Positions 3,196 to 23,105 of a DNA stretch of 46,239 nucleotides are shown piece by piece. Below the pieces are notes generated by a model. It did no database searches, had not been told where the DNA came from, and saw only the letters and a list, made by a program, of their open reading frames with translations. Within the stretch, counting starts at the first letter, position 1. Each line of letters starts with the position of its first letter. The stretch is from Gammaproteobacteria bacterium (lineage in GTDB: Bacteria; Pseudomonadota; Gammaproteobacteria; Steroidobacterales; Steroidobacteraceae). The stretch lies in the NCBI GenBank assembly GCA_041690875.1, contig JBEPVS010000001.1, positions 1-46,239 on the forward strand. Direction: 5' to 3'. The position numbers and the translations under genes are program-made.

Positions 3196-3723
3196 TTATC
3201 GCGACGTATCCGCGTCCGTCAAGGTGTGCACCTGTCCCATCGCGGGACGAAACCGCACGCGCACCGAGGATTCGGCATGCGCCATCGAACTGATGACCTG
3301 GATGCCCGCGTCCTGCAGGAACGCGCCGATGAAAGCCTGCAGTCCTTCGCAGCGCACGCGCGCGGAGGCCTGGTCTTCGGTGTGCGCCACAAGTTTTGCC
3401 TGCCAGTGCTTGGCCTGCGGACTGACCGCGCCGAGTTCACGCATTGCGCGATCGAGCAACGCCAGGTCGCTTGACAGCGTGTTGTCGGTCAGATTCGGAT
3501 CGCGGCTGTGTCCCGGAGCCGCCAGCCGCAAGTGCAACAGCGCGCCGTGTTCCTCGACCGCGTCGTACAGGCACACGACCAGCGAACTGTGCAGCGCTGC
3601 GCACAGCACGACGTCGTCGGTGACGATGCGGTAATCGTCCGATTCGACCGTCAGGTCCGGCGCAGGCTCATCCATCGACGCAGTCTCGCAGGCATAACGC
3701 GCAACCGGTGTTAGCCAGGTCAC
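3196..3723 (-). CDS. CheD-like protein (orphan, nucleophile position apparently Ser)
   Basis: 175-aa ORF with GTG 3723 or alternative ATG 3675. By-eye alignment to CheD: HSSLVVCLYDAVEEHGALLHLRL versus GSCVGVVIYDLFHQVAGMAHVML. Also AKLVAH...GIQVISS...VRVRF versus AKIAGG...GI.I.SED...R.IEF. No chemotaxis genes lie nearby. Confidence 0.45.
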   Translation of the reverse strand: MTWLTPVARYACETASMDEPAPDLTVESDDYRIVTDDVVLCAALHSSLVVCLYDAVEEHGALLHLRLAAPGHSRDPNLTDNTLSSDLALLDRAMRELGAVSPQAKHWQAKLVAHTEDQASARVRCEGLQAFIGAFLQDAGIQVISSMAHAESSVRVRFRPAMGQVHTLTDADTSR

Positions 3724-4710: not shown

Positions 4711-5291
4711 AGAAATCGCGGCTCGAGGCCTTCAGCGATGGCGTGCTCGCGATCATCATCACGATCATGGTGCTGGAACTGCACGCGCCGCACGAGCCGA
4801 CGCTCAATGCGCTGGTGCTGCTTTGGCCGACGCTGCTCAGCTACTTGATGAGCTATGTATTCGTCGGCATCTACTGGAACAACCATCACCACCTGTGGCA
4901 GTTGGTCGAGCACGTCAACGGCCCGGTGCTGTGGGCCAACCTGCACCTGCTGTTCTGGCTATCGCTCGTACCGTTCGTCACCGCATGGATGGGCGAGAAT
5001 CATTTCGCGGCCGCGCCGGTCGCTGTGTATGGCCTGGTGCTGTTCGGCGCCGCGGTCGCGTACTACATCATGACGCGCGTGCTGCTGGCCGACCACGCGC
5101 GCGACTCGCTGCTGGCGCGCGCACTCGGGAGCGATTTCAAGGGCCGGATCTCGCTGGTCATCTACGCTGTGGCGATCGCCCTCGCATTCGTTCTGCCCTG
5201 GGTGTCGGGATTACTGTACGCAACGGTGTCGGTAATCTGGCTGGTGCCTGACCGCCGCGTCGAGCGCGTGCTCGTTGGAAAGCACGGCTAG
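4707..5291 (+). CDS. TMEM175 family potassium channel (DUF1211)
   Basis: ATG 4707 overlaps the GNAT stop (ATGA). Hallmark RLEAFSDGVLAIIITIMVLE (RxxxFSD) is present. Six predicted hydrophobic helices. Confidence 0.85.
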   Translation: MKKSRLEAFSDGVLAIIITIMVLELHAPHEPTLNALVLLWPTLLSYLMSYVFVGIYWNNHHHLWQLVEHVNGPVLWANLHLLFWLSLVPFVTAWMGENHFAAAPVAVYGLVLFGAAVAYYIMTRVLLADHARDSLLARALGSDFKGRISLVIYAVAIALAFVLPWVSGLLYATVSVIWLVPDRRVERVLVGKHG

Positions 5292-8200
5292 CGCTCGATC
5301 GTGTACACGAGGTCGGCGCTGCGCGTCAGGCCGGCCTCGGTCTTGATCGTCCAGTGATCGCCGAGCGTGTATCGCATCTTGATCGTGTTGATCGCCTCGG
5401 CGAGGCTGATGCCGTAGCTGACATACAGTCGTGGCGACAGGTAGCGGCCCAGCACGAGCGAGGTTTCGTTATTGAGATCCGATTCGACGCTGACATCGTC
5501 GAGACCGACCTTGCCGCCGAACTGCTGGAACAACAGCGCGCTGCCCTGCAGCAGCATGTTGTTGCGCGCCTCGGCGCCGCGCTGCGCCGGGTCAGCGTTC
5601 TGCACGCTGTCGAGCGAACCGCCGGCGAGCAGCAGCGACACAATCTGCGACTGCGACACCATCGGATCGGAGAAGAAGGTCATGCGCGGCGCGCGCAATG
5701 TGCCGCGCACGTTGACCCCCGCCGTGATGTCGGGAAATTTCTTGATCGCGCGCAGGTCGATTGCCGGATCGTTCAACGGTCCATTGCGGAACTGCAGCTT
5801 GCCGCGCTCGATGTCGAGCCTGCGCCCATAGGCCGTATATTTGCCTTCCTCGACCTTCAGTTCACCGGTACCGCGCGCAAAGCCCGTGTCGTCGGCAATG
5901 GCGCGCAGGCTCCCGCTCAGGCGCCCCACCAGGCCGAGCGTATCAATCGTTACGCGCTCGCCCAACACCAGCGTCAGGTCGCTGAACACATGGAAGCTCT
6001 CGCCAGGCGGTGCCTGATTGGTGGTGACGATGATCTCATCGCCCGATGCGCGCACCGCGTTCGTGAGCTGGTCGGGACGCTGCAGGCGCGCATACGGAAG
6101 CGTGACGGTGCCGGTGATGTCTATGCGCCGTCCGCCGAATTTCATCCGCACGTCGGGCGAGGCCTGCACGCGCGCTTCGGGAATGTTGACGACACGCAGG
6201 TTGTCGCCGCTCAGGTGGATCTGTCCGTAGGGCAACAGGTCGCGCCACGCGAGTTCGCCATCGAACTGCGCATGGCCGTCGGCACCGGCGCGCGTACTGC
6301 CATTGAGCTGTAGAACCGAGTCCTTGAGTCGCGCCTCGAAATTCAGTTCACGCAGCGAGAGGTTGATCTGGTAGGCGTCGACCTCTGCGTCCGTCAATTT
6401 CAGGTCGCCGTTCAGGTTCAATGCCGCCAGCGTTCCGTCCAACTGCACGTTCGCATCGAGCTGCCCTGCCACGCGGTCGACCTGCGCGACGTACGAGTCG
6501 ATGAAGCCCAGCGAGTGTGTCTGCAGCCGCACATCGCCTTTGAGCGGCCATGCGCGCAGCTCGCCCCCATCGTTTCGAGCATCCAGATGCCCGGCGATAT
6601 TGCCGCCGGTACCGGCGTCGAGCCCGACGCTCGCCGTGAGGCCGCCTTCGTCCAGCTTGGCGCGCATGTTGCCCGTGCCGAGGCTGAAAGATTCGATGCG
6701 GCCGCCACTGAGATGATGGCGCACAGCCGCGTCGGCGAGCGTGCCGGTGATTGAGCCGGTCCACGCGGCGTCGCCCGTCGCTTCGGCTTGAGCATCGAGC
6801 GACACACGACCTTCAAAGTCAGTTTGGACGCCGAGGCCGGCAGTCAGCGTGCGCAGCGGCACATTTTCGGCATGCACGCGGGCCTGCGTGTGCCCGGCCT
6901 CGCGCGACAGCGCGGCACACAACGTGGCCTGCGTATCCTGCAGGCAGAAGTTGCTGAGCTGCAGCGGATCGCCGGTGACCGAGGCGACCAGCGTCGCGGG
7001 CTGCGCCAGCGCCAGGTGCAACGCGCCGCCGTCGCCGGCCGTGAACGCCTCGATACCGGCGCGCCACACGCCGTCGGCGTATTGTCCCTGGCCGCTCGCC
7101 TGCATTCGGTATGGCGCCGCGCGCAGATCGACCTCGTAACGGTGTGCCGCAGTGGTGCCGGCCGTCGTCACGCCCAGGTGCGAAAAATGGTGCGCGCCCG
7201 AAGTGAACTGTTCAAGCTGCAGGTTGATGTCGGCGCGCCCGTTGCCTTGCGGTTCGAAATCGATGTCGGCGCTGACAGCCTGCAGTTGCATGCCCTCGAA
7301 GTCGATGCCGGTGCCACGGACGCGCGCCACGAGCAGCGGGTCGCGCGTATCGCTCCGGTAATGTCCGCTGGCGCGCAGCTGTCCGCGCGCTCCGGTGTGC
7401 AAGAGTGCCAGGTCGTTTGCATCAATGGCGAAACGCAGGTCGGGGTGCACGCCAAGTCGGCCGTCCGCCTCGAGGTGCGTGGCGCCGAGCTGCACCTGTA
7501 CCTGCTGCAGCAGCCAGTCATCACCCGCGAGCGCGATGCCGGCGCGCCCGCTGGCACGTTGGCCGCGCACATTGCCCGCAAGCGCCGTGAATTTCGACTG
7601 CAATTCTCCGCCGGCTCCAAAGCCCTGGCCTGCTGCGCTTACGTTGAAGTCAAGACGCCCACTGACCCCGGACCGCACCGTGGAAACGTTCAGGCCATGC
7701 ATCGCACCGGCGATCGACCAGCGCTCGAGCGGCGACCACTGCGCATCGGCACGCAGCTGCGCGTGGCCGCCGAAGGCGTCGAGCGCGAGATCGGGAATGT
7801 CGATGCCATTGTGCTCGATATGACCGCTTGCGCCGAAGTGCAGCGCGGGCAGCGTGAGTACTTGCAATGCTCCGCTCGCCGAAAAGGCGAAGGGCTTGAG
7901 GCCACTGAGCGTGTAGCTGCCTTCGGGGCTGTGCACATTCGCATCGGGCGCGGCCAGCGGCCAACGAAATCGCTGCCAATCGCCGCGCAGGTCGAGCCGC
8001 GGCCCCTCGGTCTCGATACCGATGCTGCCAGAGGCGCGGAGTAGTGCGCCGGAAGCGCGATGCAGGAACGTTGCGCGCGATACATCGAGTACATGCGACG
8101 CGTACCGGCCGTAGAAATCCACTGCCAGCGCGCCGGCATGCAGGCCTGGCGGTTCGAGCGTACCCTGTGCGCCAAACCCATCGCGGTTACCCTTCAGTTG

Positions 8201-9037
8201 CAGGGTACCGTGCATGACGCCCAGCGCGTTGCCGAGTCCCCAGGCACGCAGGTCGAGGCCGCGCACTTCCGAAGTGCCCAGCCAGTTCCAGTCACCGGTG
8301 AGTGCGCGGGCCTCGCCGTGGGCATCCGCATTGAACGGCGCGAGCAGGGCGCCGGTAATCGGCAGCCGATCGAGATCGCCGTCGAACTGGGCATTCGCAA
8401 GCCACGCAGGCTGGCCCTCTAGCGTCAAGCTCAGGCGCGATTGGCCCGTAAGGCGGATCGGATTGGCGGCGAACACGATCCCGCTGCTGCGCGTCTCCCA
8501 ACCCAGGTACAGCATTGTGGCCTCGAAAACGCGGATCTCGTTGAGGCCAACCACCGCAACCGTGTGCAGCCGATCGAAGGCCACGCTGACCCCACTCGGT
8601 GAAATGATCTCCGCGTGCGCGATGTTCAGATCTTCGGCACGGATGTTGAGCAGCCCGACGAGGAAATGCGGTTGCCATGGCGCGGCGTTCGACTGTGGAT
8701 GCGGCAGCACATGGATCTTCACGTCTGCCATCGACAGGTGCGCGACGCGAATCGTTTGCCACAACAGTGGGAGCAGTGCGACGCGGCCGTCGACGTTGGT
8801 TGCGACCACCTGCATGCGCGCATGGTCGACTTCAATGCGATCGATATGCAGTCCGCCGTGCAGCGTGCCGCGCACACCGCTGATCTTGAGCGTGACAGGA
8901 CCGAGCTGCCGGCTCGACAGCGAGACGATGCGCTGCAGTCCGCCGGGCGTCCAACCGACATAGTAGATCGCGCCGCCGACCAGTAGCACCAGCGCCAGCA
9001 GCGAGATCCACGAGGTGTGCAGCACGCGGCGAATCAT
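5288..9037 (-). CDS. tamB: Translocation and assembly module inner-membrane subunit TamB
   Basis: 1249 aa with an N-terminal anchor (ISLLALVLLVGGAIYYV) and a long beta-rich body. The C-terminal DUF490-type end is LGRYLSPRLYVSYGISL...WTIKTEAG. The start overlaps the tamA stop by 4 nt. Confidence 0.9.
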   Translation of the reverse strand: MIRRVLHTSWISLLALVLLVGGAIYYVGWTPGGLQRIVSLSSRQLGPVTLKISGVRGTLHGGLHIDRIEVDHARMQVVATNVDGRVALLPLLWQTIRVAHLSMADVKIHVLPHPQSNAAPWQPHFLVGLLNIRAEDLNIAHAEIISPSGVSVAFDRLHTVAVVGLNEIRVFEATMLYLGWETRSSGIVFAANPIRLTGQSRLSLTLEGQPAWLANAQFDGDLDRLPITGALLAPFNADAHGEARALTGDWNWLGTSEVRGLDLRAWGLGNALGVMHGTLQLKGNRDGFGAQGTLEPPGLHAGALAVDFYGRYASHVLDVSRATFLHRASGALLRASGSIGIETEGPRLDLRGDWQRFRWPLAAPDANVHSPEGSYTLSGLKPFAFSASGALQVLTLPALHFGASGHIEHNGIDIPDLALDAFGGHAQLRADAQWSPLERWSIAGAMHGLNVSTVRSGVSGRLDFNVSAAGQGFGAGGELQSKFTALAGNVRGQRASGRAGIALAGDDWLLQQVQVQLGATHLEADGRLGVHPDLRFAIDANDLALLHTGARGQLRASGHYRSDTRDPLLVARVRGTGIDFEGMQLQAVSADIDFEPQGNGRADINLQLEQFTSGAHHFSHLGVTTAGTTAAHRYEVDLRAAPYRMQASGQGQYADGVWRAGIEAFTAGDGGALHLALAQPATLVASVTGDPLQLSNFCLQDTQATLCAALSREAGHTQARVHAENVPLRTLTAGLGVQTDFEGRVSLDAQAEATGDAAWTGSITGTLADAAVRHHLSGGRIESFSLGTGNMRAKLDEGGLTASVGLDAGTGGNIAGHLDARNDGGELRAWPLKGDVRLQTHSLGFIDSYVAQVDRVAGQLDANVQLDGTLAALNLNGDLKLTDAEVDAYQINLSLRELNFEARLKDSVLQLNGSTRAGADGHAQFDGELAWRDLLPYGQIHLSGDNLRVVNIPEARVQASPDVRMKFGGRRIDITGTVTLPYARLQRPDQLTNAVRASGDEIIVTTNQAPPGESFHVFSDLTLVLGERVTIDTLGLVGRLSGSLRAIADDTGFARGTGELKVEEGKYTAYGRRLDIERGKLQFRNGPLNDPAIDLRAIKKFPDITAGVNVRGTLRAPRMTFFSDPMVSQSQIVSLLLAGGSLDSVQNADPAQRGAEARNNMLLQGSALLFQQFGGKVGLDDVSVESDLNNETSLVLGRYLSPRLYVSYGISLAEAINTIKMRYTLGDHWTIKTEAGLTRSADLVYTIER

Positions 9038-10995
9038 AGGCGCGGCGAGATGTTCAGATGCAAGCGTGCGCCAGGCAAGGTGTCGAACCCCGGCGCGTGC
9101 AGTGCCTTGGCAACGTCGATGCCAACCGTGACTACCGGCAGGCGCCAGCGGAAACCCACGCCTACAGCGATCGCCAGTTTGTCGTCGAGACGGTCGAGCG
9201 CATTGCCGAAATCGGAGAACACCGCCACGCCCAGGTTGCGCGGCAGGTCGCGCTCGAATTCGACGGTGCCGGTGAGCAGGTGGCGGCCGCCGATACGCTG
9301 CGACACGAAGCGGTCGAACGGCTGTCCCTGGTTGGGTCCGGTGTCGAAGGTGCCGGTCTGGCGCACGGTGCGCAGCGGCGACAGGTCGTCGTAGCCGAAA
9401 CCGCGCACGCTGCGGTCACCGCCAGCGAAGAAACGGTATGCGGCAGGCAGCTGGTCGAAATTGTGCACGGCGCTGATGCCGACTTCGCCGCGCAACAGCA
9501 GGTGCCAGAGACGGCTGAGGTTGAATACCTGTTCCGAGCGCACGTCGAGGCGCAGGAAGCTGGACTTGGCGCCAAGCGCGCTGGTCGAGCCGTCAAGCTG
9601 CGCATACAGCGAGCGTGAGAACAGGTCTTCGCCCAGGTAGCCCTCGGGTATCGCGGCAACGACGATGCTCGGCACCACCAGGTTGTCGACCTTGCTGTTG
9701 TCGATTGCGTCGCTGGTGACATCGTGCACGAATTTGGCGGCGAACACCCGCTGCCAGTGGCCGGTGCTAAAGCTGATGGTGGGAGCCAACGACACCTCGC
9801 GGGTGTCGATCTCGGCGCTGCTGGTGGTGAAGCCGGTATCCGGGGCCACCGGCGCCGGCAGCAAAGTCTGTGTGTAGACGTTGCTGCCGATATGCTGGGT
9901 CTGGTCGATGAATTGCAACGAAAATTTTTCCAGCACCGGATCGCCAAAAGGCACGTCGTAGCGGGCGTTGATGTTCTGCGTGGTCTCCGATACCTGCAGC
10001 GAGACACGCATGCGGTGGCCGCGATCGTTGATGCGTGGGTTGAGCCAGCTGACGGTGATGCGTGCACCCGTGTCCGTGGCGTAGCCGGGCCCGATTGAGT
10101 AGGTGCTGCGCGCGGCCTTGGCGGCAATCTGGATCGGCACAATGTGCGTCACCGGGTCACGCTGACCGAGCACCATGTCGACGTTGGAAAAGAATTCACT
10201 GTCATCGAGCGCGAATTGCGTGCGCAACAGCTTGCCGGCGTCGTAGGGTTCACCTTCGCGGTAGCGCAGGTAGCGGACGATCTGCGAGTCACGGATCGCA
10301 TTCTGGTCGATGGTCGTGGCGCCGAAGCGATAGCGCTCGCCGGTCTCGATTTCGATGATCACGTTGGCGCGGTGCGCGGCCGGATCGACCAACAGATCGC
10401 TGCGCAGCAGCCGCGCATCGAGGTAACCGAACGTAGCGGCCGCCGACTGCAGATCGCTCTTCACCTTTTCATAAGCGGCGTGCTCGAGCCGCGCGCGCTC
10501 GTGCTGCGCGCGGCCGGCGGCGACGCGCGCGAACACGGGATCGTCCGCGCCGGCGCCCTGGATGCTGATGGTGACACTGTCGATCAGCACCGGTTCGCCA
10601 GGCTTGATATCGATGTGCACGCGCCAGTTGCGCTGTTCGTCCTCGGGCGTCAGGCTCGCCTTGATCACCGGCTCGTAGTAGCCGAATGGGCGCAATGCAT
10701 CGCGCACTTCGCCGTCGACGCGCCGGAACAGGCGCGCCACCGCATCGGGCTCGATGCGGTCGCGGTCCTTGTAGCTTTCGAGGCTGAGCAGTGCGAGTAC
10801 GTTGCGCCGCAGGTCACCGTCAACGCCTTCGATCTCGACGCGGATCTCGGCCGAGACCGGCCGCGCCAGCAACACCGCCAGCATTGTCGCCAGCGCCAGC
10901 ACGCGCGCATGCAAGCGCAGCAGCCCGGGACGGGTAACGGCAGCGTGGATCGGGCGCGCGAATTTCACCAGATTTTGAGTGGCCGGGACCGTCAT
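9034..10995 (-). CDS. tamA: Translocation and assembly module outer-membrane subunit TamA (Omp85 family)
   Basis: Signal peptide ...MLAVLLARPVSA/EIRVEIEG, POTRA-like repeats and a C-terminal Omp85 barrel ending in aromatic-rich strands. Sits immediately upstream of tamB. ATG 10995 has a GGA 7 nt upstream. The ORF-track GTG 11016 would overlap nudC by 10 nt. Confidence 0.85.
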   Translation of the reverse strand: MTVPATQNLVKFARPIHAAVTRPGLLRLHARVLALATMLAVLLARPVSAEIRVEIEGVDGDLRRNVLALLSLESYKDRDRIEPDAVARLFRRVDGEVRDALRPFGYYEPVIKASLTPEDEQRNWRVHIDIKPGEPVLIDSVTISIQGAGADDPVFARVAAGRAQHERARLEHAAYEKVKSDLQSAAATFGYLDARLLRSDLLVDPAAHRANVIIEIETGERYRFGATTIDQNAIRDSQIVRYLRYREGEPYDAGKLLRTQFALDDSEFFSNVDMVLGQRDPVTHIVPIQIAAKAARSTYSIGPGYATDTGARITVSWLNPRINDRGHRMRVSLQVSETTQNINARYDVPFGDPVLEKFSLQFIDQTQHIGSNVYTQTLLPAPVAPDTGFTTSSAEIDTREVSLAPTISFSTGHWQRVFAAKFVHDVTSDAIDNSKVDNLVVPSIVVAAIPEGYLGEDLFSRSLYAQLDGSTSALGAKSSFLRLDVRSEQVFNLSRLWHLLLRGEVGISAVHNFDQLPAAYRFFAGGDRSVRGFGYDDLSPLRTVRQTGTFDTGPNQGQPFDRFVSQRIGGRHLLTGTVEFERDLPRNLGVAVFSDFGNALDRLDDKLAIAVGVGFRWRLPVVTVGIDVAKALHAPGFDTLPGARLHLNISPRL

Positions 10996-11006
10996 GGTTC
11001 CGGAAT

Positions 11007-11930
11007 TCAATTGCACGGCGTGAGTGCCGTGCCGGTAACGCTGCGGTACCAGGCATCGATCAATCGCCGCGCGATGGTGTACACGGGCGGCAGCACCGCC
11101 TGGTTCGCAGCCAGTTCCGCGGCGCTGAACCAGCGCGCATGCTCCAGTTCGCCGTCCAGCTGCACCGGCTCGCTCCGGTCGGCCGTCGCGTGGAATCCCA
11201 GCATCAGTGATGCGGGAAAAGGCCAGGGCTGCGATGCAAAATAGCGAACGTTGCCGGCGTGCACGCCGGTCTCCTCGAGCACTTCCCGAACCACGGTGTC
11301 TTCGAGCGTTTCACCCGCCTCGACGAAGCCCGCCAGCGTCGAGTAGCGTCCGTCGGGCCACGACGCCTGCCGTCCGAGCAGCGCGTGATCGCCGTCGCTG
11401 ACCAGCACAATGACAGCCGGATCGAGCCGCGGAAAAAATTCCGCGCCACACTCGGTGCTGGTGCAACGCAGGCAATGGCCGGCCTGCCGCGGCGCAGTCG
11501 GCGCGCCGCAGACGCCACAATGCCGGTGGCGCTCGCGCCAGATCTGCAGCGCACGCGCGCTGATCAGCAGCGCTGCCTGCGGCTCCGGCAGTTCGGTGAG
11601 CAGCGGGCGCAGCTCCTCGAATTCCGTATCATCGGGAAATACACCGCGCCCGGGTTGCGCCTCAAGCAGCACGCAACACCGGCCTTCGAACCATCCCAGC
11701 AGCAGCAGCTTGGTGGCGTCCGCGGCGCGCACCAGAGGATGGAGCGAGTCAAGGAAGGCGATCGAGGTCGAAGCGCCGCGCCTCACCAGGTGACGCGTGC
11801 CGCTGGCCACGAGGAACAGGGTGCCCGTGTCGGCCAGTGCCTGGGCCGCCCAAGTCTCAGTCTCGCGCAAGTGCGCGCGGCGCTCCAGCCAGGCGCCGGT
11901 AAAGGGATTGCCGCCAAATTCCGCCGTCAT
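11007..11930 (-). CDS. nudC: NAD(+) diphosphatase (NADH pyrophosphatase)
   Basis: Zinc ribbon CGVCGAPT...CLRCTSTECG, Nudix box GFVEAGETLEDTVVREVLEETGV and the NudC-specific SQPWPFPASLMLGF motif. Confidence 0.85.
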   Translation of the reverse strand: MTAEFGGNPFTGAWLERRAHLRETETWAAQALADTGTLFLVASGTRHLVRRGASTSIAFLDSLHPLVRAADATKLLLLGWFEGRCCVLLEAQPGRGVFPDDTEFEELRPLLTELPEPQAALLISARALQIWRERHRHCGVCGAPTAPRQAGHCLRCTSTECGAEFFPRLDPAVIVLVSDGDHALLGRQASWPDGRYSTLAGFVEAGETLEDTVVREVLEETGVHAGNVRYFASQPWPFPASLMLGFHATADRSEPVQLDGELEHARWFSAAELAANQAVLPPVYTIARRLIDAWYRSVTGTALTPCN

Positions 11931-11955
11931 CGGGCCGCTGCCTGCATGGCCCGAT
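11929..11955. promoter_or_regulatory. Inverted repeat ATCGGGCC-N11-GGCCCGAT spanning the nudC start codon
   Basis: Perfect 8-bp arms read directly (11929-11936 and 11948-11955). An extended -10-like TGATAATAT on the minus strand abuts it at 11954-11962. Confidence 0.3.
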
Positions 11956-12011
11956 ATTATCAGTTGGCCGTTTGAGGACCCGCTGGAAGTACCGCCTTTT
12001 GGTGGCTGAGG

Positions 12012-12608
12012 TCAGGCGGGCGGGCGAGGGCGACGCACGGTGCTGCATGCCTGCGGCGTGCGCGGATCGGCTTCTGCGCACACGGCACAGCGCGGCGGCC
12101 GCAACGCCAGCGCATCGACGACCACGAGGGCGCCGCAACCCTGGCAATCCGCCAACGCGAGTTCGGTCCCGCGCGCCAACGCACTCACCAGCAGCACGGC
12201 GTGCTCGAAGCCAATGCCCGGCGCGCTGACGATCGCCCGATACACGTCATAGGCCTGGCACAGGGCCGACGCGCGCGCGACGCCCGCCAGCGGTGCCGCG
12301 GCCGGACGCTCGGGCCGCCGCCGTTCCACAGCGCCAACCAGGCAGCACAGCGCCGCCAGGGCGCCCGCTTCGTGCCGAAGCCGTGTCGTGCGCAGGAAAA
12401 ACGCAGGCTGCTGCGGCGACTTGCCGCGGTGGCGCGTGACGCGCCGGCCACCCTCCTGCAGGTAGGAGCGATAGAGCTTGCGGATACGGTCATCGGTGAG
12501 CCCCGTCCACTGCCGGATCGTGTGCGTGCGCGCTTCGTGGTGGATGAAATGCATGGCGATATCGAGACGCTGGCGGTCGCGGCTGTAGCGGTCGTCGGAG
12601 ATGCGCAT
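12012..12608 (-). CDS. FlhC-like transcriptional regulator (non-flagellar context)
   Basis: ATG 12608 is preceded by GAGG. The ORF-track TTG 12665 lies inside the palindrome. By eye, RQRLDIAMHFIHHEARTHTIRQWTGLTDDRIRKLY matches E. coli FlhC [34 protein letters not shown]. The C-terminal CQGC-N15-CAVC is spaced like the FlhC zinc site. Confidence 0.6.
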   Translation of the reverse strand: MRISDDRYSRDRQRLDIAMHFIHHEARTHTIRQWTGLTDDRIRKLYRSYLQEGGRRVTRHRGKSPQQPAFFLRTTRLRHEAGALAALCCLVGAVERRRPERPAAAPLAGVARASALCQAYDVYRAIVSAPGIGFEHAVLLVSALARGTELALADCQGCGALVVVDALALRPPRCAVCAEADPRTPQACSTVRRPRPPA

Positions 12609-12647
12609 GGTGACCTCACTCGCCGGTATTCCGGCTTCTTGGTAGAA

Positions 12648-12665
12648 TTGGGATAAATATCCCAA
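12648..12665. promoter_or_regulatory. Perfect AT-rich palindrome TTGGGATA-AA-TATCCCAA in the divergent control region (candidate operator)
   Basis: 8-bp arms and a 2-bp spacer read directly. It overlaps a minus-strand sigma70-like promoter TTGGAA(12684-12679)-N17-GATATT(12661-12656) pointing at the FlhC-like gene. Confidence 0.4.
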
Positions 12666-12729
12666 ATTACCGGGTGGCTTCCAAGCCCCTTACGCAGCAA
12701 ATTTGACACCGGAACGCAGAGGAACGCAT

Positions 12730-13332
12730 ATGCCCGAGCCGCAGTACATCGTCGCCGCAGCCGGCGGCAACTGGGATCACACCGTGATCGAGCCGCTGGC
12801 CGAGCTCAATCTCGAGGTGCTTGATGCACTGCTGGGCGCTGGCAGCAGTCTCGGCTGGCGCTGGCGCGCGCTGGGAGACGACGCACGCGTGCGACTGACG
12901 CGTTGCCCGTTTCTGCTCGTCGACGTCGGCGGGGCGCAGCCGCAACTGTGGTCGAGCCTGCCGCGCGTCGGCGTGCACGAGGCGCAGGCGGTATCGGCGT
13001 TGCTCGCGCAGCGCGGTCCGCTGCCCACGCCGCTGCTGCGGCGCGTGCTGCTGTTCGCCTGGCACCTTGCGCGCGCCAATCCGCTGGCGGCGCGCATCAC
13101 GCTCGGCATGAGCGCGCCGTGCGCGGCCCTGGTGGCCGCCTGCCGTTTCGCCGACCTCGAAGCGCTGGCCGAGCGCCGCCCCGCCTGGATCCGGCCGCGC
13201 TGGCACGATCGCACCGAAATATGGCAAGCATGGCTCGTGGCGGCCGCCGAGGAATCGCCGCGTGGACTGGAAAACCTGCAGCTCTGGGGCCTGCAAATGC
13301 TGGCGGCCGACGTGCTCGGGCGCCGCGGCTGA
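12730..13332 (+). CDS. Hypothetical protein with FlhD-like segment
   Basis: ATG 12730 is preceded by GAGGA. LLFAWHLARANPLAARITLGMSAPCAALVAACRFADLEALAERRPAWIRPRW aligns by eye with E. coli FlhD [52 protein letters not shown]. About 200 aa, nearly twice the length of FlhD. Coding status is fairly secure; the function is inferred. Confidence 0.45.
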   Translation: MPEPQYIVAAAGGNWDHTVIEPLAELNLEVLDALLGAGSSLGWRWRALGDDARVRLTRCPFLLVDVGGAQPQLWSSLPRVGVHEAQAVSALLAQRGPLPTPLLRRVLLFAWHLARANPLAARITLGMSAPCAALVAACRFADLEALAERRPAWIRPRWHDRTEIWQAWLVAAAEESPRGLENLQLWGLQMLAADVLGRRG

Positions 13333-13449
13333 ACTCTAAGAGCAATCCGCGATGGCGCCGCGTCCTCGCGGTGGAAAACTGCCAATACAGGCTCTACTAT
13401 TGCGCCCTTGCTGCGCGGCTCCGATAACAGGCAAAAGCGAGGTCCAATC

Positions 13450-14394
13450 ATGTGGGGGAAAGTCGTGAATACTGCATTGACGCTGGCGATCACAGCCGGC
13501 CTCACGAGTTTCGCTGCCGTCAGCAACGTGCAGGCGGGCGAGAAAGACACCAAGCCGCCCGAGATTCCGACCTGTGACCACAAGATTGGTACGCTGGCGG
13601 TCACTGAACCCGAGAAGCGCTGGTGGCAGGACCTCAACCTCGAGTCACCGGAGGCGCTGATCAAGATTTTCGTCTCGCAGTCGCACTGCTTCACGCTGGT
13701 CGATCGCGGCAAGGGCCTGGCCGCGGCACAGGCCGAGCGCGCGCTGGCGGGCGAGGGCGAAATGCGCGGCGGTTCAAACATCGGCAAGGGCCAGATGAAA
13801 GCGGCTGACTATGTGCTCGTGCCCGACATCGTCAACCAGAATGGCAATTCCGGCGGCCGCCACATTGGCGGCATTCTCGGCGGCTTCGTGCCGGGCCTGG
13901 CCGGTGCAGTGCTCGGCGGCATCAGCCTGAAGAGCAAGACGGCCGACGTCGTGCTGACGCTGACAGACGTGCGTTCGACCGAACAGGTTTCACTGCAGCA
14001 GGGGCATGCGAAGAAGACCGACCTCGGCTGGGGCGCAGGGGGCGGCTTGGGTTTCTTCGGCGGATTCGCCGCCGGCGGCGCCAGCAGCTACGCCAACACC
14101 GAGATCGGCCAGGTCGTCACGATGGCCTACCTCGATGCGTTCTCGAAACTGGTCACCGACGTCAAGGCGATCCAGCCCAATGCCAAGGCCGACAACGTGA
14201 CGCAGTCGGTGTCGATGTCGAAGCCCGGCAAGCTCTACGCCGAGCCGAACCTGAAGTCCGCCGTCGTGCGCGATCTCGATCCGGGCATGACGATGTACCC
14301 GACCGGTGACAAGCAAGGCATCTGGTGGAAAGTCACCGACGAACTCGGCAACGAGGGCTGGGTCCCATCCAGTCTCTTCCAGCTCGCGAAATAA
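13450..14394 (+). CDS. CsgG/HfaB family protein with C-terminal SH3 domain
   Basis: Sec signal MWGKVVNTALTLAITAGLTSFAAVSNVQA/GE with no lipobox Cys. CsgG-like blocks are ALIKIFVSQSHCFTLVDRGKGL, ADYVLVPDIV and a Gly-rich loop followed by ADVVLTLTDVRS. The C-terminal SH3_3-like segment is KLYAEPNLKSAVVRDLDPGMTMYPTGDKQGIWWKVTDELGNEGWVPS. Confidence 0.7.
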   Translation: MWGKVVNTALTLAITAGLTSFAAVSNVQAGEKDTKPPEIPTCDHKIGTLAVTEPEKRWWQDLNLESPEALIKIFVSQSHCFTLVDRGKGLAAAQAERALAGEGEMRGGSNIGKGQMKAADYVLVPDIVNQNGNSGGRHIGGILGGFVPGLAGAVLGGISLKSKTADVVLTLTDVRSTEQVSLQQGHAKKTDLGWGAGGGLGFFGGFAAGGASSYANTEIGQVVTMAYLDAFSKLVTDVKAIQPNAKADNVTQSVSMSKPGKLYAEPNLKSAVVRDLDPGMTMYPTGDKQGIWWKVTDELGNEGWVPSSLFQLAK

Positions 14395-14395
14395 C

Positions 14396-15319
14396 TTGCT
14401 GGCGCTGTCGATACAGGGGCTGACCAAGACCTACCGCAACGGCGTACAAGCCCTGCGCGGCGTCGACCTCGACGTCGAGCAGGGTGATTTCTTCGCGCTG
14501 CTCGGCCCGAACGGCGCCGGCAAGACCACACTCATCGGCATCATCACCTCGCTCGTCAACAAAACGGCGGGCACGGCGAGCGTGTTCGGCTACGACCTGG
14601 ACCGCGAGCTCGAGCGCGCGAAATCCTGCATCGGCGTGGTGCCGCAGGAACTGAACTTCAACCAGTTCGAGACGCCGCTGACGATCGTCATCAATCAGGC
14701 CGGTTTCTACGGCATTCCGCGCGCGGTAGCGCGCGAGCGCGCCGAGAAATACCTGAAGCAGCTGCAACTCTGGGACAAGCGCAACGGCATGGCGCGCGGG
14801 CTCTCCGGCGGCATGAAGCGCCGGCTGATGATCGCGCGCGCGCTGATGCACGAACCGCGGCTGCTGGTGCTCGATGAACCGACCGCCGGCGTCGACATCG
14901 AGATCCGCCGTTCGATGTGGGAGTTTCTCAACGACATTAATGCGCGCGGCACCACCATCATTCTCACGACTCACTATCTCGAGGAAGCCGAGAATCTCTG
15001 CCGCAACATCGCCATCATCGACAACGGCCTAATCGTCGAGCGCGACCGCATGAGCAACCTGCTGCGCGGATTGCACACCGAGACCTTCGTGCTGAACCTG
15101 CGCGATCCGGTGGCGGCCGCGCCGCAGATCGCCGGGTTTGCGCTCACGCGCATCGACGATCACACGCTCGAGGCCGAAGTGTCGAAAGATCAGAGCCTGA
15201 ACGGACTGTTTGCGCAGCTCGCCGCGCAGCGGCTCGACGTGCTGTCGATGCGCAACAAGGTCAATCGCCTCGAAGAGGTGTTCATGCGGCTGGTCGAACA
15301 TCGAGGCGCCAATGGCTGA
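14396..15319 (+). CDS. ABC transporter ATP-binding protein (ABC-2 exporter type)
   Basis: TTG 14396 is the only plausible start, since the domain begins LSIQGLTKTY. It lies 1 nt after the CsgG-like stop. Walker A GPNGAGKTT, signature LSGGMKRRL, Walker B LLVLDEPTAGVD. Confidence 0.85.
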   Translation: MLALSIQGLTKTYRNGVQALRGVDLDVEQGDFFALLGPNGAGKTTLIGIITSLVNKTAGTASVFGYDLDRELERAKSCIGVVPQELNFNQFETPLTIVINQAGFYGIPRAVARERAEKYLKQLQLWDKRNGMARGLSGGMKRRLMIARALMHEPRLLVLDEPTAGVDIEIRRSMWEFLNDINARGTTIILTTHYLEEAENLCRNIAIIDNGLIVERDRMSNLLRGLHTETFVLNLRDPVAAAPQIAGFALTRIDDHTLEAEVSKDQSLNGLFAQLAAQRLDVLSMRNKVNRLEEVFMRLVEHRGANG

Positions 15320-16124
15320 CACGACTGCGGCAACCCTGCCCGCTGAGGCTTCTCTGAACGCGGTGCGCTGGACCGGATTCGTCACGATCATCATTCGCGA
15401 ATACAGCCGCATCGTGCGCATCTGGGGCCAGACGCTGGTGCCCTCGGCGGTGACGGCGATCCTGTACTTCGTGATCTTTGGGAGCCTCATCGGCCGGCGC
15501 GTCGGCCAGATGGGCGGCTTCGATTATATGCAGTACATCGCGCCCGGCCTGATCATGATGTCGGTGATCACCAACTCCTACGGCAACTCGGTGGCTTCGT
15601 TCTTCGGCGCCAAGTTCGGCAAGCATGTCGAGGAACTGCTGGTCTCGCCGCTCCCCAACTGGATCATCGTCTCCGGCTATGCGGCCGGTGGCCTGTTGCG
15701 CGGCCTGATGGTGGGCGCCGTCGTGACGGTCGTGTCGCTGATCTTCGCGCACCTGCCTGTGCAACACCTCGGCCTGCTGATTGCGGCGGTGCTGCTCACA
15801 TCGCTGATCTTCTCGCTCGGCGGCTTCATCAACGCGGTGTTCGCCAAGAACTTCGACCAGGTAAACTGGATTCCGGCTTTCGTGTTGACTCCGCTGACTT
15901 ATTTCGGCGGCGTGTTCTATTCGGTCGCGATGCTGCCGCCATGGGCGCGCGCGCTGTCGCACATCAATCCGATCCTGCACATGGTCAACGCGTTCCGCTA
16001 CGGATTCCTCGGCGTCAGCGATGTCAGCATCGCCGGCGCCTTCGCCATCATGGTGGGGCTGGCGATCGTGTTGTTCGTCGTAGCACTGCAGTTGATGAAC
16101 CGGGGCGTGGGCATCCGCGAGTAG
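15312..16124 (+). CDS. ABC-2 type transporter permease
   Basis: ATG 15312 overlaps the ATPase gene by 8 nt. The protein has six hydrophobic helices and an N-terminus FVTIIIREYSRIVRIWGQTLVPS typical of ABC-2 (YadH-like) permeases. Confidence 0.85.
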   Translation: MADTTAATLPAEASLNAVRWTGFVTIIIREYSRIVRIWGQTLVPSAVTAILYFVIFGSLIGRRVGQMGGFDYMQYIAPGLIMMSVITNSYGNSVASFFGAKFGKHVEELLVSPLPNWIIVSGYAAGGLLRGLMVGAVVTVVSLIFAHLPVQHLGLLIAAVLLTSLIFSLGGFINAVFAKNFDQVNWIPAFVLTPLTYFGGVFYSVAMLPPWARALSHINPILHMVNAFRYGFLGVSDVSIAGAFAIMVGLAIVLFVVALQLMNRGVGIRE

Positions 16125-16838: not shown

Positions 16839-18082
16839 GTGCAAAGCCGATGCGCGTGCTGTTCGTGTCCGACGTCTATTTTCCGCGCGTCAACGGCGTT
16901 TCCACTTCGATCGCGACCTTTCGCGCCGACCTGGCTGCAGGCGGCGTCGAGACGACGCTGGTGGCGCCGCAGTATGCCGTGAAGCCCGCGGTGCCCGATG
17001 ATGCGGACGTCATTCGCGTGCGCTCGGGAGCGGTACCGCGCGATCCCGAAGACCGGCGCATGCGCTGGAGCGAGTTGGGGCGATCGTTGAATGCGTTGCA
17101 CGAGCGGCCGTTCGATCTCGTGCATGTGCACACGCCATTCCTCGCGCACTACGCCGGCGTGCGATTCGCACGCGCCGCAGGGATTCCGGTGGTCGAGACC
17201 TATCACACCTTCTTCGAGGAATACCTGCACCACTACGTGCCGCTGCTCCCGCGCGCCCTGGGTCGGCGGCTGGCGCGATCGGTCACGCGTTCGCAGTGCG
17301 CGCAGGTGGATGCGGTCATTGCGCCGTCACAGCCGATGCACGCGATGCTGACGGCAAGTGGCATCGAGCGTCCGATCCAGGTGATACCGACCGGTCTTCC
17401 CGTCGATCGCTTCGTGCGCGGCGACGGCGCGCGCTTCCGGCGCCAGCACAATATTCCGCCGGATCGTCCGCTGCTGCTGTACGTGGGACGCGTGGCGCAC
17501 GAAAAGAACATCGGTTTCCTGCTCGAGATGCTGCTCGACGTCCGGCGCAGCCGGCCCGACGCGCTGCTGGTCGTTGCCGGCGAAGGACCGGCGCGCGCTG
17601 CACTGGCGGCGCAGGCCGGCAGGCTCGGGCTGGAACGCGAAGTCGTGTTCATCGGCTATCTCGACCGCGAGCGCTCGCTCCCCGATTGCTACGCCGCGGC
17701 CAGCGTGTTCGTGTTCGCATCGCGCACCGAGACGCAGGGCCTCGTGCTACTCGAGGCGATGGCACAGGCCTGCCCAGTGGTGTCGACGGCTTACCTGGGC
17801 ACGGCATCGATCCTGCAGCCGGGTTGCGGCGCGCGCGTAGCGCCCGACGAGCCCGCCGGATTTGCGCAGGCGGTTGTCGGACTGCTCGATACGCCTGCGC
17901 GCGCGGCGCGCTGCGGTGTGCAGGGCCAGGTCTACGCGCGCGGCTGGACTTCTGCGCTGATGGCCACGCGCATGCACGAGTTCTACGCGGATGTTTGCGC
18001 GCGCGCTAAAATGGTTCCGCGGCCGGCCGACTCGGTCGGGACGAGGGGACCGGATGAGCGCCAAGCGTGCCTTGATAGTTGA
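16835..18082 (+). CDS. Glycosyltransferase family 4 (GT-B, retaining)
   Basis: ATG 16835 overlaps the PAP2 stop (ATGA). N-terminus MRVLFVSDVYFPRVNGVSTSI and the E-x7-E motif SRTETQGLVLLEAMA. Confidence 0.85.
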   Translation: MSAKPMRVLFVSDVYFPRVNGVSTSIATFRADLAAGGVETTLVAPQYAVKPAVPDDADVIRVRSGAVPRDPEDRRMRWSELGRSLNALHERPFDLVHVHTPFLAHYAGVRFARAAGIPVVETYHTFFEEYLHHYVPLLPRALGRRLARSVTRSQCAQVDAVIAPSQPMHAMLTASGIERPIQVIPTGLPVDRFVRGDGARFRRQHNIPPDRPLLLYVGRVAHEKNIGFLLEMLLDVRRSRPDALLVVAGEGPARAALAAQAGRLGLEREVVFIGYLDRERSLPDCYAAASVFVFASRTETQGLVLLEAMAQACPVVSTAYLGTASILQPGCGARVAPDEPAGFAQAVVGLLDTPARAARCGVQGQVYARGWTSALMATRMHEFYADVCARAKMVPRPADSVGTRGPDERQACLDS

Positions 18083-19451
18083 TGATTCGCGAACCGCGCG
18101 CACAATCCTGACTCGCATCCTGCAGCGCTACGACTTGCAGGTTGACGGCGCTGCCTCGGCCGAGGAAGCATTTGAATACCTCGCGGCCGGGCACCCCGAT
18201 GTGATCTTCATGGATCACCTGATGCCCGGCATGGACGGATTCCAGGCGCTAAGCGCGATCAAGAACGATCCGCGCACCGCGGCGATCCCGGTAATGATGT
18301 ACACATCGCAGGAAGGCGAGGTGTACCTGAACCAGGCGCGCGCGCTCGGTGCAGTCGGCGTGCTACCGAAGCAGGCGCGCCCCGACGATGTGGGCCGCGC
18401 GCTGAAGCCGCTGCAGCTGCTCGGTGAATCGCCTCCCGTGGAACTCGTGCGCGCCGCGTTGACGCCTGCGCCGACCGCGGCCGCGGCGGAATTCGACTCG
18501 GCCGCGACATGGGCGAGCGATGCAGCGCCGATTGGCATGTCACCCGAAATGCGCGCGCACTTCGACGCGCTGCTGCGCGATCACGGCGTCGAACTGCGCC
18601 GGTTCGTCGCCGCTTCCCTCGCGCAACACACCGGACAGATCATCAACGAAGTGCGCGCATTGATGGATGGAGCAACGCCGGCCGCAGCGGCTCTCCCTGC
18701 GGTGCCGGCGCGCGCGCCGATGGCGACGTCGGATAGGCCTGCATTGGCTGGGCCGGTATCGCGTCCGCGGCACGGCGGTACTGCAGCGTTGTGGTTCGGT
18801 GCGGCGGCGACACTGATCGCCGTGGCCGCAGGCGTATTCTGGTATCGAGCGCAGCTGCTGGAAGCGGCGCGCGCTGCCGTTGCTTCGCACGCACGCGTGC
18901 ACGCTGCGGCGGCGCCGACTCCGGCAACAACGCCACCCGCGTCTGCTGCTGCTGAAGGCGCCACGAGTGGGGCGGACATCGCGCCGGTCTCCGCTACGGA
19001 GACACAGCTCGTCGAGGCGGTGCCATTCGGCGAACAACCGCTGGCCGGTTCGCGCGTCGAGACGATACGCGCCGTGCTCGATCAGCTTGCCGCCGCCGGT
19101 TTTCGTGGCGTGGTCGAGATCCGCAGCTACCCGGGCCGCTTTTGCATGCAGGCGGGCAGCACGGCGCCGCACATGCCCGCCGCGGATGCCGCCTACGCGC
19201 AATGCGGCAGCGTTGGAAATCCGCTGGACTTTGCCGACCCGCGCTCGCTCCAGTCGCCCGATTTCGCCGCGCTGCTGGCGGCGCAGGCCGGTCGCGGGCG
19301 CGGCGCGCTGGACGTGCAGCTCGTAATCGGCAGCGCAGACGATGTGGCGACGCCTTACCCGCTGGTCTCAGCGCCGCTGACCGCCGGCGAGTGGAATCGC
19401 GCGGCCGCGGCCAACAACCGCGTCGAAGTGCGCACGCGGCCGATGCCTTGA
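18054..19451 (+). CDS. Response regulator receiver protein with transmembrane segment and C-terminal OmpA/MotB-like extracytoplasmic domain
   Basis: ATG 18054 overlaps the GT4 gene by 29 nt. CheY-like receiver motifs LIVDDS, IFMDHLMPGMDG, MYTS and LPK. A single hydrophobic helix TAALWFGAAATLIAVAAGVFWY follows, then an Ala/Pro linker. The about 150-aa C-terminal domain has two Cys and ends NNRVEVRTRP. Confidence 0.8.
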   Translation: MSAKRALIVDDSRTARTILTRILQRYDLQVDGAASAEEAFEYLAAGHPDVIFMDHLMPGMDGFQALSAIKNDPRTAAIPVMMYTSQEGEVYLNQARALGAVGVLPKQARPDDVGRALKPLQLLGESPPVELVRAALTPAPTAAAAEFDSAATWASDAAPIGMSPEMRAHFDALLRDHGVELRRFVAASLAQHTGQIINEVRALMDGATPAAAALPAVPARAPMATSDRPALAGPVSRPRHGGTAALWFGAAATLIAVAAGVFWYRAQLLEAARAAVASHARVHAAAAPTPATTPPASAAAEGATSGADIAPVSATETQLVEAVPFGEQPLAGSRVETIRAVLDQLAAAGFRGVVEIRSYPGRFCMQAGSTAPHMPAADAAYAQCGSVGNPLDFADPRSLQSPDFAALLAAQAGRGRGALDVQLVIGSADDVATPYPLVSAPLTAGEWNRAAAANNRVEVRTRPMP

Positions 19452-21899: not shown

Positions 21900-23077
21900 G
21901 CCGGACGCAACTCCAGCTGGTCGGTGCGCGCGCGTGGCGTGCGCGTGGGCAATGACGGACCGATCCGCGCGAGCACGCGCGCCGAAACCGCGCGCCACGT
22001 CGTGAGTTTACCGCCGTAGATCGATAGAACGCGCGGCCGGTGGTTGCGGTCGGGCACCAGCATCGTTTCACGCGAGCGATGAAAGGCGTGACCGCCACCG
22101 GCGGGCAACACGCGCAGGCCGGCGAACTCACCGCGCAACTCCGATGCAGCGGCATCGCGAAACCGCGGAAAATAATGGCGCAACACGCCGAGCAGGTAGT
22201 GCACCTCGTGCGGTCCCGGTGCCACCGCGGATGGATCGCCGTGATAGCGCACTTCAGTCGTTCCCACCATCAGCTGCCCGCGAAACGGCATGACGAAAAT
22301 CGCGCGGCCATCGCGCGGACTCTCGAGATAGTAGACGCCGCGCCGTGGCGGCGTATCGAGCAGCAGATGAGTGCCCTGCACCAGTTCGAGCGGCGGCACG
22401 GTGATCGCCGGCGTGATCGTGCGGGCCAGCGTTTCGGCCCACGGACCCGCGGCGTTGACCAGTACGCGCGCCGCGCATTCCTGCGGGGCGCCATCCTGCT
22501 CGTAGCGTACCTGCACGCCATCCGCGGCCAACAACGCGCCCGTGCAGCGCGCCGGCAGCGCCAGCTCCGCCCCCAACGATTGTGCCGAGCGCATGACCGC
22601 TCCGGTGAGCAACGCGTCGTCAGTCTGCGCATCGTGGTACCAGAACACCTGGCGCAGTCCGTGCACGTCGAGTCCGTCGAGCGAAGTCCACTCGCTGCGC
22701 GGCACGGTGCCAAAATGAGTGGTCGAGTCGAGACCGGCCAGCAGTGCGTACAGCGAAAGTCCTATACGCAGTTGCCAAGGATGCCGCCGGTTCTGGTCGT
22801 AAATGGGGATGAAAAATCTTTGCAGGTGCACGAGCTCCGGCGCAAGTCGCAGCATCAGCGCGCGCTCGCGCAGGCTTTCGTGCACGAGCCGCAGCTGGCC
22901 CGATTCGAGATAGCGCAATCCGCCATGGATCAGCTTGCTCGAGCGGCTCGAGGAACCGGCGGCAAGCGAACTCTGTTCGAGCAGCAGCACGCTGTGACCC
23001 GCCGCCGCGGCAGCCTGCGCAATGCCGACCCCGTGGATGCCGCCGCCGGCAACGACCACGTCGTAGCGGGCGCTCAC
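21896..23077 (-). CDS. glpD: FAD-dependent glycerol-3-phosphate dehydrogenase/oxidase (short form)
   Basis: GTG 23077. FAD fold YDVVVAGGGIHGVGIA and the GlpD hallmark SSKLIHGGLRYLE. At 393 aa it is shorter than E. coli GlpD and appears to lack the C-terminal extension. Confidence 0.8.
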   Translation of the reverse strand: MSARYDVVVAGGGIHGVGIAQAAAAAGHSVLLLEQSSLAAGSSSRSSKLIHGGLRYLESGQLRLVHESLRERALMLRLAPELVHLQRFFIPIYDQNRRHPWQLRIGLSLYALLAGLDSTTHFGTVPRSEWTSLDGLDVHGLRQVFWYHDAQTDDALLTGAVMRSAQSLGAELALPARCTGALLAADGVQVRYEQDGAPQECAARVLVNAAGPWAETLARTITPAITVPPLELVQGTHLLLDTPPRRGVYYLESPRDGRAIFVMPFRGQLMVGTTEVRYHGDPSAVAPGPHEVHYLLGVLRHYFPRFRDAAASELRGEFAGLRVLPAGGGHAFHRSRETMLVPDRNHRPRVLSIYGGKLTTWRAVSARVLARIGPSLPTRTPRARTDQLELRPA

Positions 23078-23105
23078 GTGCCGGTGCTCATGACACGGTG
23101 CTCAT
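23064..23105 (-). repeat. Three tandem 14-nt units at the GDPD/glpD junction (ATGAGCACCGTGTC / ATGAGCACCGGCAC / GTGAGCGCCCGCTA on the minus strand)
   Basis: Read directly from the reverse complement of 23064-23105. Units 1 and 2 are identical in their first 10 nt. Unit 3 carries the glpD GTG start and matches unit 2 at 9 of 14 positions. Confidence 0.9.

Follow-up and report, generated by a model that had tools for sequence, protein, structure and literature searches.

Activators of the FlhDC type are known in two settings, at the top of the flagellar hierarchy and as the switch of conjugative transfer. The first setting is that of FlhD4C2, the flagellar activator of Enterobacteria and Betaproteobacteria (PDB entries 2AVU and 8J56), and canonical flhDC usually lies beside motAB-cheAW. 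The second is found in the SXT/R391 integrative and conjugative elements (ICEs), in IncA/C plasmids and in the islands mobilised by both; AcaCD, composed of AcaD (202 amino acids) and AcaC (183 amino acids), is the transfer activator of IncA/C plasmids (PMC3915882). FlhDC, SetCD and AcaCD are class II activators with unrelated boxes (PMC4344509, PMC4207636), and boxes differ between members of the FlhDC family (PMC4344509). In BisDC, the two-subunit activator of ICEclc, BisC carries DUF2857 and BisD is a ParB-domain protein without an FlhD domain (PMC7423338). A literature search found no paper on chromosomal non-flagellar FlhDC-like pairs. Here, we describe a divergent pair of genes, one FlhC-like and one FlhD-like, in a 46,239-nt stretch of DNA (hereafter, the window) from a soil gammaproteobacterium of the family Steroidobacteraceae. 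The two genes probably encode, as its C and D subunits, a heteromeric transcription factor of the FlhDC family that is chromosomal and inherited vertically.

The minus-strand gene of the pair had been called FlhC-like in an earlier note made from the letters of the window, and both profile and fold comparisons bore this out. When the family profile was searched against 177,635 PDB sequences, FlhC chains alone were matched (8j56_C, E 0.0012; 2avu_E, E 0.012), with alignments that span both CxxC pairs. PF05280 was matched by 27 of 30 family members at E ≤ 0.01, the best E value being 7e-6. The AlphaFold2 model of the protein (predicted local distance difference test, pLDDT, 86; predicted template modelling score, pTM, 0.80) was compared with PDB structures in Foldseek, which returned the FlhC chains of 8J56 and 2AVU with E values of 1e-5 to 5e-5, a probability of 1.0 and a template modelling (TM) score of 0.74; the next match had an E value above 1. 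The C-terminal CxxC-N15-CxxC arrangement pointed out in the same note is present. Its four cysteines, C155, C158, C174 and C177, are invariant in 30 aligned homologues and line up with the two Cys pairs in FlhC of 2AVU and 8J56, and the Cys4 motif is retained in 112 of 128 full-length family representatives. The N-terminal 65 residues or so are almost invariant in the family as well. Searched alone, the window protein reached E 6e-4 and 19.6 bits against the NCBIfam FlhC equivalog, whose cut-off is 216, and no Pfam or NCBIfam family other than the FlhC models was matched. Its scores fall below the Pfam and NCBIfam cut-offs, and the protein is a distant relative rather than an orthologue. NCBI names some members of the clade "FlhC family transcriptional regulator" and the partner "hypothetical protein". 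Judged from profile and model, the minus-strand protein is folded like FlhC and keeps its Cys4 site, putatively a zinc site, intact.

The plus-strand protein alone matched no Pfam or NCBIfam model. Its family profile, searched against the PDB, matched Cupriavidus FlhD (8j56_A, E 2.5e-4) and E. coli FlhD (1g8e, E 0.15). Residues 106-167 (62 residues) were aligned to residues 23-84 of 8j56_A, in the same register as the alignment with the FlhD core that the earlier note had made by eye. Many relatives have precomputed PF05247 matches, and 2 of 31 were matched at E ≤ 0.01 on re-scanning. In the structure model (pLDDT 83 overall and above 90 for residues 21-70), FlhD chains made up nine of the ten best PDB fold matches, with probabilities of up to 0.98 and TM scores of 0.65-0.70 normalised to FlhD; the E values were only 0.2-2, which are weak because only half of the query is covered. 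By profile and predicted fold, the protein is FlhD-like in its C-terminal half. The N-terminal 95 residues or so are confidently folded in the model and are conserved among the relatives, with W45, L63, W74 and a CPFLLVD motif as examples, and this extension had no match in Pfam, NCBIfam or the PDB. A second FlhD repeat in the N-terminal half was considered and rejected, as hhalign put the probability of a match between the two halves at 2%. Since two independent families each match one subunit of the same complex, the joint evidence lies far above chance.

The distribution of the pair was surveyed in contigs representing one genome per species, in which at least 594 loci encode an FlhC-like protein; the best 80 of these were examined. 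They belong to Steroidobacteraceae, Steroidobacterales and unclassified gammaproteobacterial metagenome-assembled genomes (MAGs), with a few bins under other labels. More than 3,592 FlhC-like relatives were counted in a collection clustered at 90%, and clustering at 50% identity gave 989 clusters at E ≤ 1e-3, 715 at E ≤ 1e-10 and 260 at E ≤ 1e-30. The closest named locus is L002, which belongs to a Steroidobacteraceae MAG; proteins throughout the neighbourhood are 83-95% identical to those of the window, which places the window in that family. The FlhD-like partner lies on the opposite strand in 73 of the 75 loci where both genes are visible, with a start-to-start spacer of about 118-180 bp when partial alignment starts are allowed for. 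The two exceptions carry insertions of 1.3 and 4 kb, and the divergent pairing persists even where the FlhD-like proteins are 33% identical. The survey of synteny and distribution that the earlier note had called for thus found the divergent pair Steroidobacteraceae-wide.

Of 73 loci, 56 have a co-directional nudC no more than 130 bp beyond the FlhC-like gene, usually with tamA-tamB next in line. A co-directional YadGH-type exporter comes after the FlhD-like gene in 56 of 64 loci and directly adjoins it in 20. A CsgG-like gene stands between the FlhD-like gene and the exporter in the window and mainly in its closest relatives (L002-L005, L007-L009, L011, L013 and L016). In the most distant lineages examined, whose FlhC-like proteins are about 35-40% identical, the core yadH-yadG-flhD-like <> flhC-like is intact, and the outer neighbours are replaced by arginine biosynthesis genes, mdh and polA. 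The divergent arrangement is ancient. The pair is kept across Steroidobacteraceae and related uncultured Gammaproteobacteria, where it tracks the species tree.

Pairwise-distance matrices of five proteins were compared across 40 loci, a comparison that is not a formal test of co-evolution. All five matrices correlate at r = 0.85-0.94, and the FlhC-like/FlhD-like pair reaches r = 0.94; correlations of this order among the FlhC-like, FlhD-like and housekeeping proteins are consistent with vertical descent. After NudC, the ABC (ATP-binding cassette) ATPase and TamA were removed, the partial correlation of the FlhC-like and FlhD-like proteins was 0.60, the highest of ten pairs, with 0.49 and 0.47 as runners-up. 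This signal is suggestive of a physical partnership between the two proteins.

The spacer between the two genes contains a perfect 18-bp palindrome, a candidate operator, which is upstream of both start codons, at 39 nt from the FlhC-like ATG and 64 nt from the FlhD-like one. The FlhDC box is bipartite and about 42-48 bp long, and the palindrome does not resemble it. The window holds no second copy at up to three mismatches. In 50-52 related loci, the palindrome is found 35-50 nt upstream of the FlhC-like ATG; TTGGGAAATTTTTCCCAA and TTGGGATATTTATCCCAA are its most frequent forms, the palindrome is perfect in 22 of 50 copies, and some copies have compensatory changes in both arms, e.g., TTGGTAGATTTCTACCAA. 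Elsewhere in 1.39 Mb of related loci it was absent except in two rearranged loci, in searches for exact or near-exact copies that degenerate sites would escape. A metagenome scan with the exact commonest 18-mer returned 80 contigs. The gene pair adjoins the motif in 44 of them, 34 come from low-GC unrelated organisms, and two are high-GC contigs without the pair, so that 44 of 46 high-GC contigs have it. Because the scans find the palindrome essentially only beside the pair, the element is specific to this locus. The earlier note had likened the pair to a master regulator; the only conserved cis element found is unique to the pair's own intergenic region, and a circuit confined to the locus would account for this no less well than a large regulon. 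Read by eye, a TTGGAA/TTGAAA hexamer 17 nt upstream would let the left arm overlap a -10-like GATATT/GAAATT that serves the FlhC-like gene. The FlhD-like gene would have its own -35-like element on the other strand, with the palindrome upstream of it.

Other clades have different AT-rich symmetric elements at the same place in the spacer, namely TTGCTATTTTTATCACAA, GTGACTAGTAAC and ACCATATATGGT. Of these, GTGACTAGTAAC contains a repeated ATCTGT, TTGCTATTTTTATCACAA is sometimes present in two copies, and L084 shows ACCATATATGGT/ACCAAATATGGT. The loci with differing elements are L017, L021, L023, L024, L038, L044, L047 and L076; L020, L050, L051, L062, L063 and L069; and L084. The binder of the palindrome may be the complex, the more variable FlhD-like subunit or another factor.

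Three individual contigs were recorded in the course of these scans. L146 (GC 0.68) is the only clearly high-GC contig with the exact 18-bp palindrome, at 10937-10954, and no pair nearby; just downstream of the motif there is a small, unrelated open reading frame (ORF) on the minus strand, and the copy could reflect chance or a rare second target. In L033 (6172-9962), an element of about 3.7 kb is inserted at the exact centre of the palindrome, leaving the regulator genes 4 kb apart. This element has 40-nt terminal matches that are 95% complementary, an inner repeat GGCGATTATCCCTTTGACAAACCCA and an apparent 8-bp target duplication AAATTTTT, and it looks like the insertion of an insertion sequence or transposon. 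L018 (9183-18990) has two FlhC-like copies, at 10001-10537 (+) and 18362-18898 (-), and the palindrome is likewise present twice (9909 and 18973). Between these duplicated features lies a tamB-tamA-nudC block in inverted orientation, which suggests that the segment was duplicated in inverse orientation, or simply inverted, with breakpoints at the candidate operator.

On the reading that we favour, the two proteins would form a DNA-binding complex of the FlhD4C2 kind and switch on sigma-70 promoters, by analogy with FlhDC, SetCD and AcaCD. The palindrome would serve as an operator coupling expression of the subunits from back-to-back promoters. The minimal regulon would be the two flanking gene strings, flhC-like-nudC(-tamAB) on one side and flhD-like-(csgG-like)-yadGH-type exporter on the other, and with such a regulon the pair would govern an envelope- or efflux-related local circuit rather than a flagellar hierarchy. 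Several observations weigh against this reading. Searched alone, the FlhC-like protein of the window matches PF05280 at E = 0.002 and 18.3 bits, under the 27-bit cut-off; of the profile searches proposed in the earlier note, those at family level gave FlhC and FlhD matches, whereas the window proteins stayed below the Pfam cut-offs. The FlhD fold match is weak (E 0.2) and covers half of the protein. A consensus scan for a sigma-70-like promoter in 11800-13600 found none, the hexamers above having been read by eye. The N-terminal 50 residues of the FlhC-like protein, a helix-turn-helix-like region, are nearly identical across clades with different palindromes, so this subunit may not read the operator. 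The synteny of nudC, tamAB and yadGH could be inherited gene order without a regulatory link. Finally, cultured Steroidobacter have a single polar flagellum, which makes a flagellar regulon elsewhere possible (PMC5979037).

One alternative takes up this last point and holds that the pair is the flagellar master regulator of the lineage, diverged in sequence and laid out divergently, with the flagellar genes elsewhere on the chromosome. Both proteins are indeed homologous to FlhC and FlhD, but when 30 other ORFs of the window were scanned against Pfam, none proved to be a gene for flagella, chemotaxis, conjugation or an integrase; the earlier note, too, had seen no flagellar, conjugative or integrase genes. 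None of the flagellar, chemotaxis, conjugative, integrase or tRNA kinds was found within 8-10 kb in eight Pfam-annotated related loci from diverse lineages. Canonical flhDC is co-directional, and in Gammaproteobacteria with polar flagella the usual regulator is the sigma-54 activator FleQ/FlrA, not FlhDC. The pair also appears lineage-wide, although some species of Steroidobacter are non-motile (PMC7966939). We consider this alternative unlikely. A strictly local regulator has a better claim and is possible, if on the doubtful side: here the complex, or one subunit, would bind its own palindrome only and control the exporter and/or nudC-tamAB, much as divergent efflux regulators do. It overlaps the reading favoured above and denies the pair a "master" role. 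It draws on the confinement of the palindrome to the pair's locus, both in the 1.39 Mb of related sequence and in the high-GC metagenome contigs with the exact variant, on the ABC exporter immediately after the FlhD-like gene in the most distant lineages, and on the closeness of nudC to the FlhC-like gene. Set against it are the restriction of the motif searches to exact or near-exact copies, which would let degenerate regulon sites escape; the control of many promoters by each of FlhDC, SetCD and AcaCD; and, again, an FlhC-like N-terminus that stays nearly the same while palindromes differ.

That the two proteins are independent, a lone FlhC-like DNA-binding protein beside an unrelated helical protein of the exporter operon, is very unlikely. 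The FlhD-like evidence is the weaker of the two sets (Foldseek E 0.2; PF05247 in 2 of 31), but the two genes stay side by side in 73 of 75 loci even as other neighbours are exchanged, the partial co-evolution of the two proteins is the strongest of the pairs tested, and sequence-profile and fold evidence independently indicate the partner subunit of the same complex. Least credible of all is a mobile-element activator module of the SetCD/AcaCD/BisDC type, whether active or a domesticated remnant. The subunit sizes of 198 and 200 amino acids match those of AcaC and AcaD (PMC3915882), AcaD likewise has its FlhD-like core in the C-terminal half, and there is weak profile similarity to AcaC (E 0.0015). 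Against this stand the same chromosomal neighbourhood in about 75 loci across deep divergence, proteins that track housekeeping phylogeny, and a native base composition: GC at third codon positions (GC3) is 0.81-0.83 in both regulator ORFs, as high as in their neighbours, and the regional GC is unremarkable. The window has no tra, integrase or tRNA gene (ARAGORN for tRNA), and no DUF2857 or ParB domain was found in the two regulator proteins (PMC7423338). The FlhC-like protein had no tblastn match in 72,556 plasmids, a viral contig scan found no relatives, PHROGs gave insignificant matches only, and PADLOC gave none. An active mobile element is largely refuted by the context and by the plasmid and viral searches.

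The features of the locus are listed in Table 1. The ORFs of the pair extend over 12012-12665 on the minus strand and 12703-13332 on the plus strand, and the true starts were set by homologue alignments; their positions, divergent orientation and peptides are as the earlier note had given them.

Table 1. Coordinates in the window of the regulator pair, its control region and the adjoining genes.
Feature	Position	Strand	Remarks
tamB	5288-9037	-	orthologue in L001 matches TamB Pfam
tamA	9034-11016	-	orthologue in L001 matches Omp85/POTRA_TamA Pfam
nudC (NAD+ diphosphatase)	11007..11930	-	NCBIfam NF001299 E 2e-70
FlhC-like subunit gene	12012..12608	-	198 amino acids, start ATG 12608 (MRISDDRY...)
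Cys4 codons, C155-x2-C158-x15-C174-x2-C177 (putative zinc site)	12078..12146	-	
Divergent control region, common to both genes	12609..12729	.	121 bp
Candidate operator, perfect 18-bp AT-rich palindrome TTGGGATAaaTATCCCAA	12648..12665	.	
FlhD-like subunit gene	12730..13332	+	200 amino acids, start ATG 12730 (MPEPQY...)
N-terminal extension of FlhD-like protein	12730..13026	+	about residues 1-99
FlhD-core half of FlhD-like protein	13027..13329	+	profile and fold matches
CsgG-like lipoprotein gene	13408..14394	+	Pfam CsgG E 4e-8; no NCBIfam match
YadG-type ABC ATPase	14405-15319	+	Pfam ABC_tran
YadH-type ABC-2 permease	15312-16124	+	Pfam ABC2_membrane; 377 bits vs NF011648/PRK15066, cut-off 225

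The chromosomal housekeeping setting with export genes described in the earlier note was recovered, with nudC(-tamAB) on one side of the pair and the YadGH-type exporter on the other. In the window, 81 nt separate the FlhC-like gene from nudC, which comes after it on the same strand; no terminator-like site was found between them, and the two genes are probably co-transcribed. The genes nudC, tamA and tamB mutually overlap, tamAB being the distal part of the same gene string. YadGH is reported to be a macrolide-exporting ABC pump in E. coli (PMC13462070, PMC13585988), and no FlhDC-yadGH link was found in the literature for this species. The CsgG-like protein has a C-terminal tail that appears SH3-like by eye (WWKVTDELGNEGWVPSSLF). 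Other genes of the window include those for Fe-alcohol dehydrogenase, Ogt, glutamate synthase, CysDN/CysH, M16 peptidases, NamZ and similar proteins. No Rfam family was matched in the whole window, and an RNA element in the spacer was rejected on this result.

Some further genes of the window were noted. The plus-strand gene at 17991-19451 encodes 486 amino acids, with an N-terminal response-regulator receiver domain followed by about 350 residues without a Pfam match; it lies downstream of genes for a PAP2 phosphatase and a GT4 glycosyltransferase, and L001 has the same order. The ORFs at 22040-23728 (+), 43611-44636 (+) and 3196-3723 (-), of 562, 341 and 175 amino acids, respectively, have coding-like GC3 and matched no Pfam family at E ≤ 1e-5.

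As a tentative proposal, the pair may represent a third lifestyle of the FlhDC family, that of a core-genome divergent regulator with its own operator and envelope or efflux targets, and possibly the stock of the plasmid and ICE activators. If this were true, the targets would be the YadGH-type exporter, NudC and the machinery of the translocation and assembly module (TAM), not flagella or conjugation, and the clade, with its AcaD-like long D subunit, could be a chromosomal source of those activators. If one member of the family is inherited vertically throughout a lineage, among housekeeping genes, then this unusual regulator architecture has a wider use, and the pair would give a handle on the origin of the AcaD-type long D subunit. 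The word "re-purposed", which the earlier note used for the pair, assumes an evolutionary direction that nothing in the analysis shows. The practical importance is limited until the regulon is known, and the palindrome offers a defined cis element whose candidate targets are open to experiment in cultivable Steroidobacter.

Compared with FlhD4C2, the pair shares the fold of the C subunit over about 176 columns (TM 0.74), the FlhD helical core in the D subunit and separate genes for the two subunits. The Cys4 motif is at the same place, with the CxxC pairs 15 residues apart here and 16 apart in FlhC. Unlike FlhD4C2, the proteins share only about 21-22% identity with their counterparts and score below the Pfam cut-offs, the genes diverge from a 121-bp spacer instead of forming a co-directional operon, the D subunit has an extra N-terminal domain of about 95 residues, and the neighbourhood is neither flagellar nor chemotactic. 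BisDC resembles the pair in being a two-subunit activator whose C subunit is FlhC-like by structure prediction. However, scans of the window proteins and of 61 relatives returned neither DUF2857 nor a ParB domain, and the pair is thus not BisDC-like.

In subunit size, the pair is close to AcaCD, at 202 and 183 amino acids for AcaD and AcaC against 200 and 198 here, and the FlhD-like core lies in the C-terminal half of both D subunits (residues 123-155 in AcaD and 114-146 here). The earlier note had treated the double-length D subunit as unusual; this was not borne out, and the long D subunit is not new in itself, because AcaD is of the same size with a C-terminal FlhD-like core (PMC3915882). 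Aligned with hhalign against single sequences, the families gave E 0.0015 over 130 columns for AcaC and E 0.16 for AcaD, scores comparable to those with FlhC and FlhD and marking a marginal similarity. On pAR060302, acaD and acaC are co-directional and overlapping, as the earlier note had said of this relative, and lie beside traFHG. AcaCD and SetCD (of the SXT/R391 ICEs) belong to conjugative elements, are encoded by co-directional overlapping genes and activate tra, xis and int, whereas the pair described here is core-chromosomal and divergent, stands without mobile genes and had no tblastn match among plasmids. The pair is placed in the FlhDC family of heteromeric regulators, probably outside its flagellar and mobile-element subfamilies.

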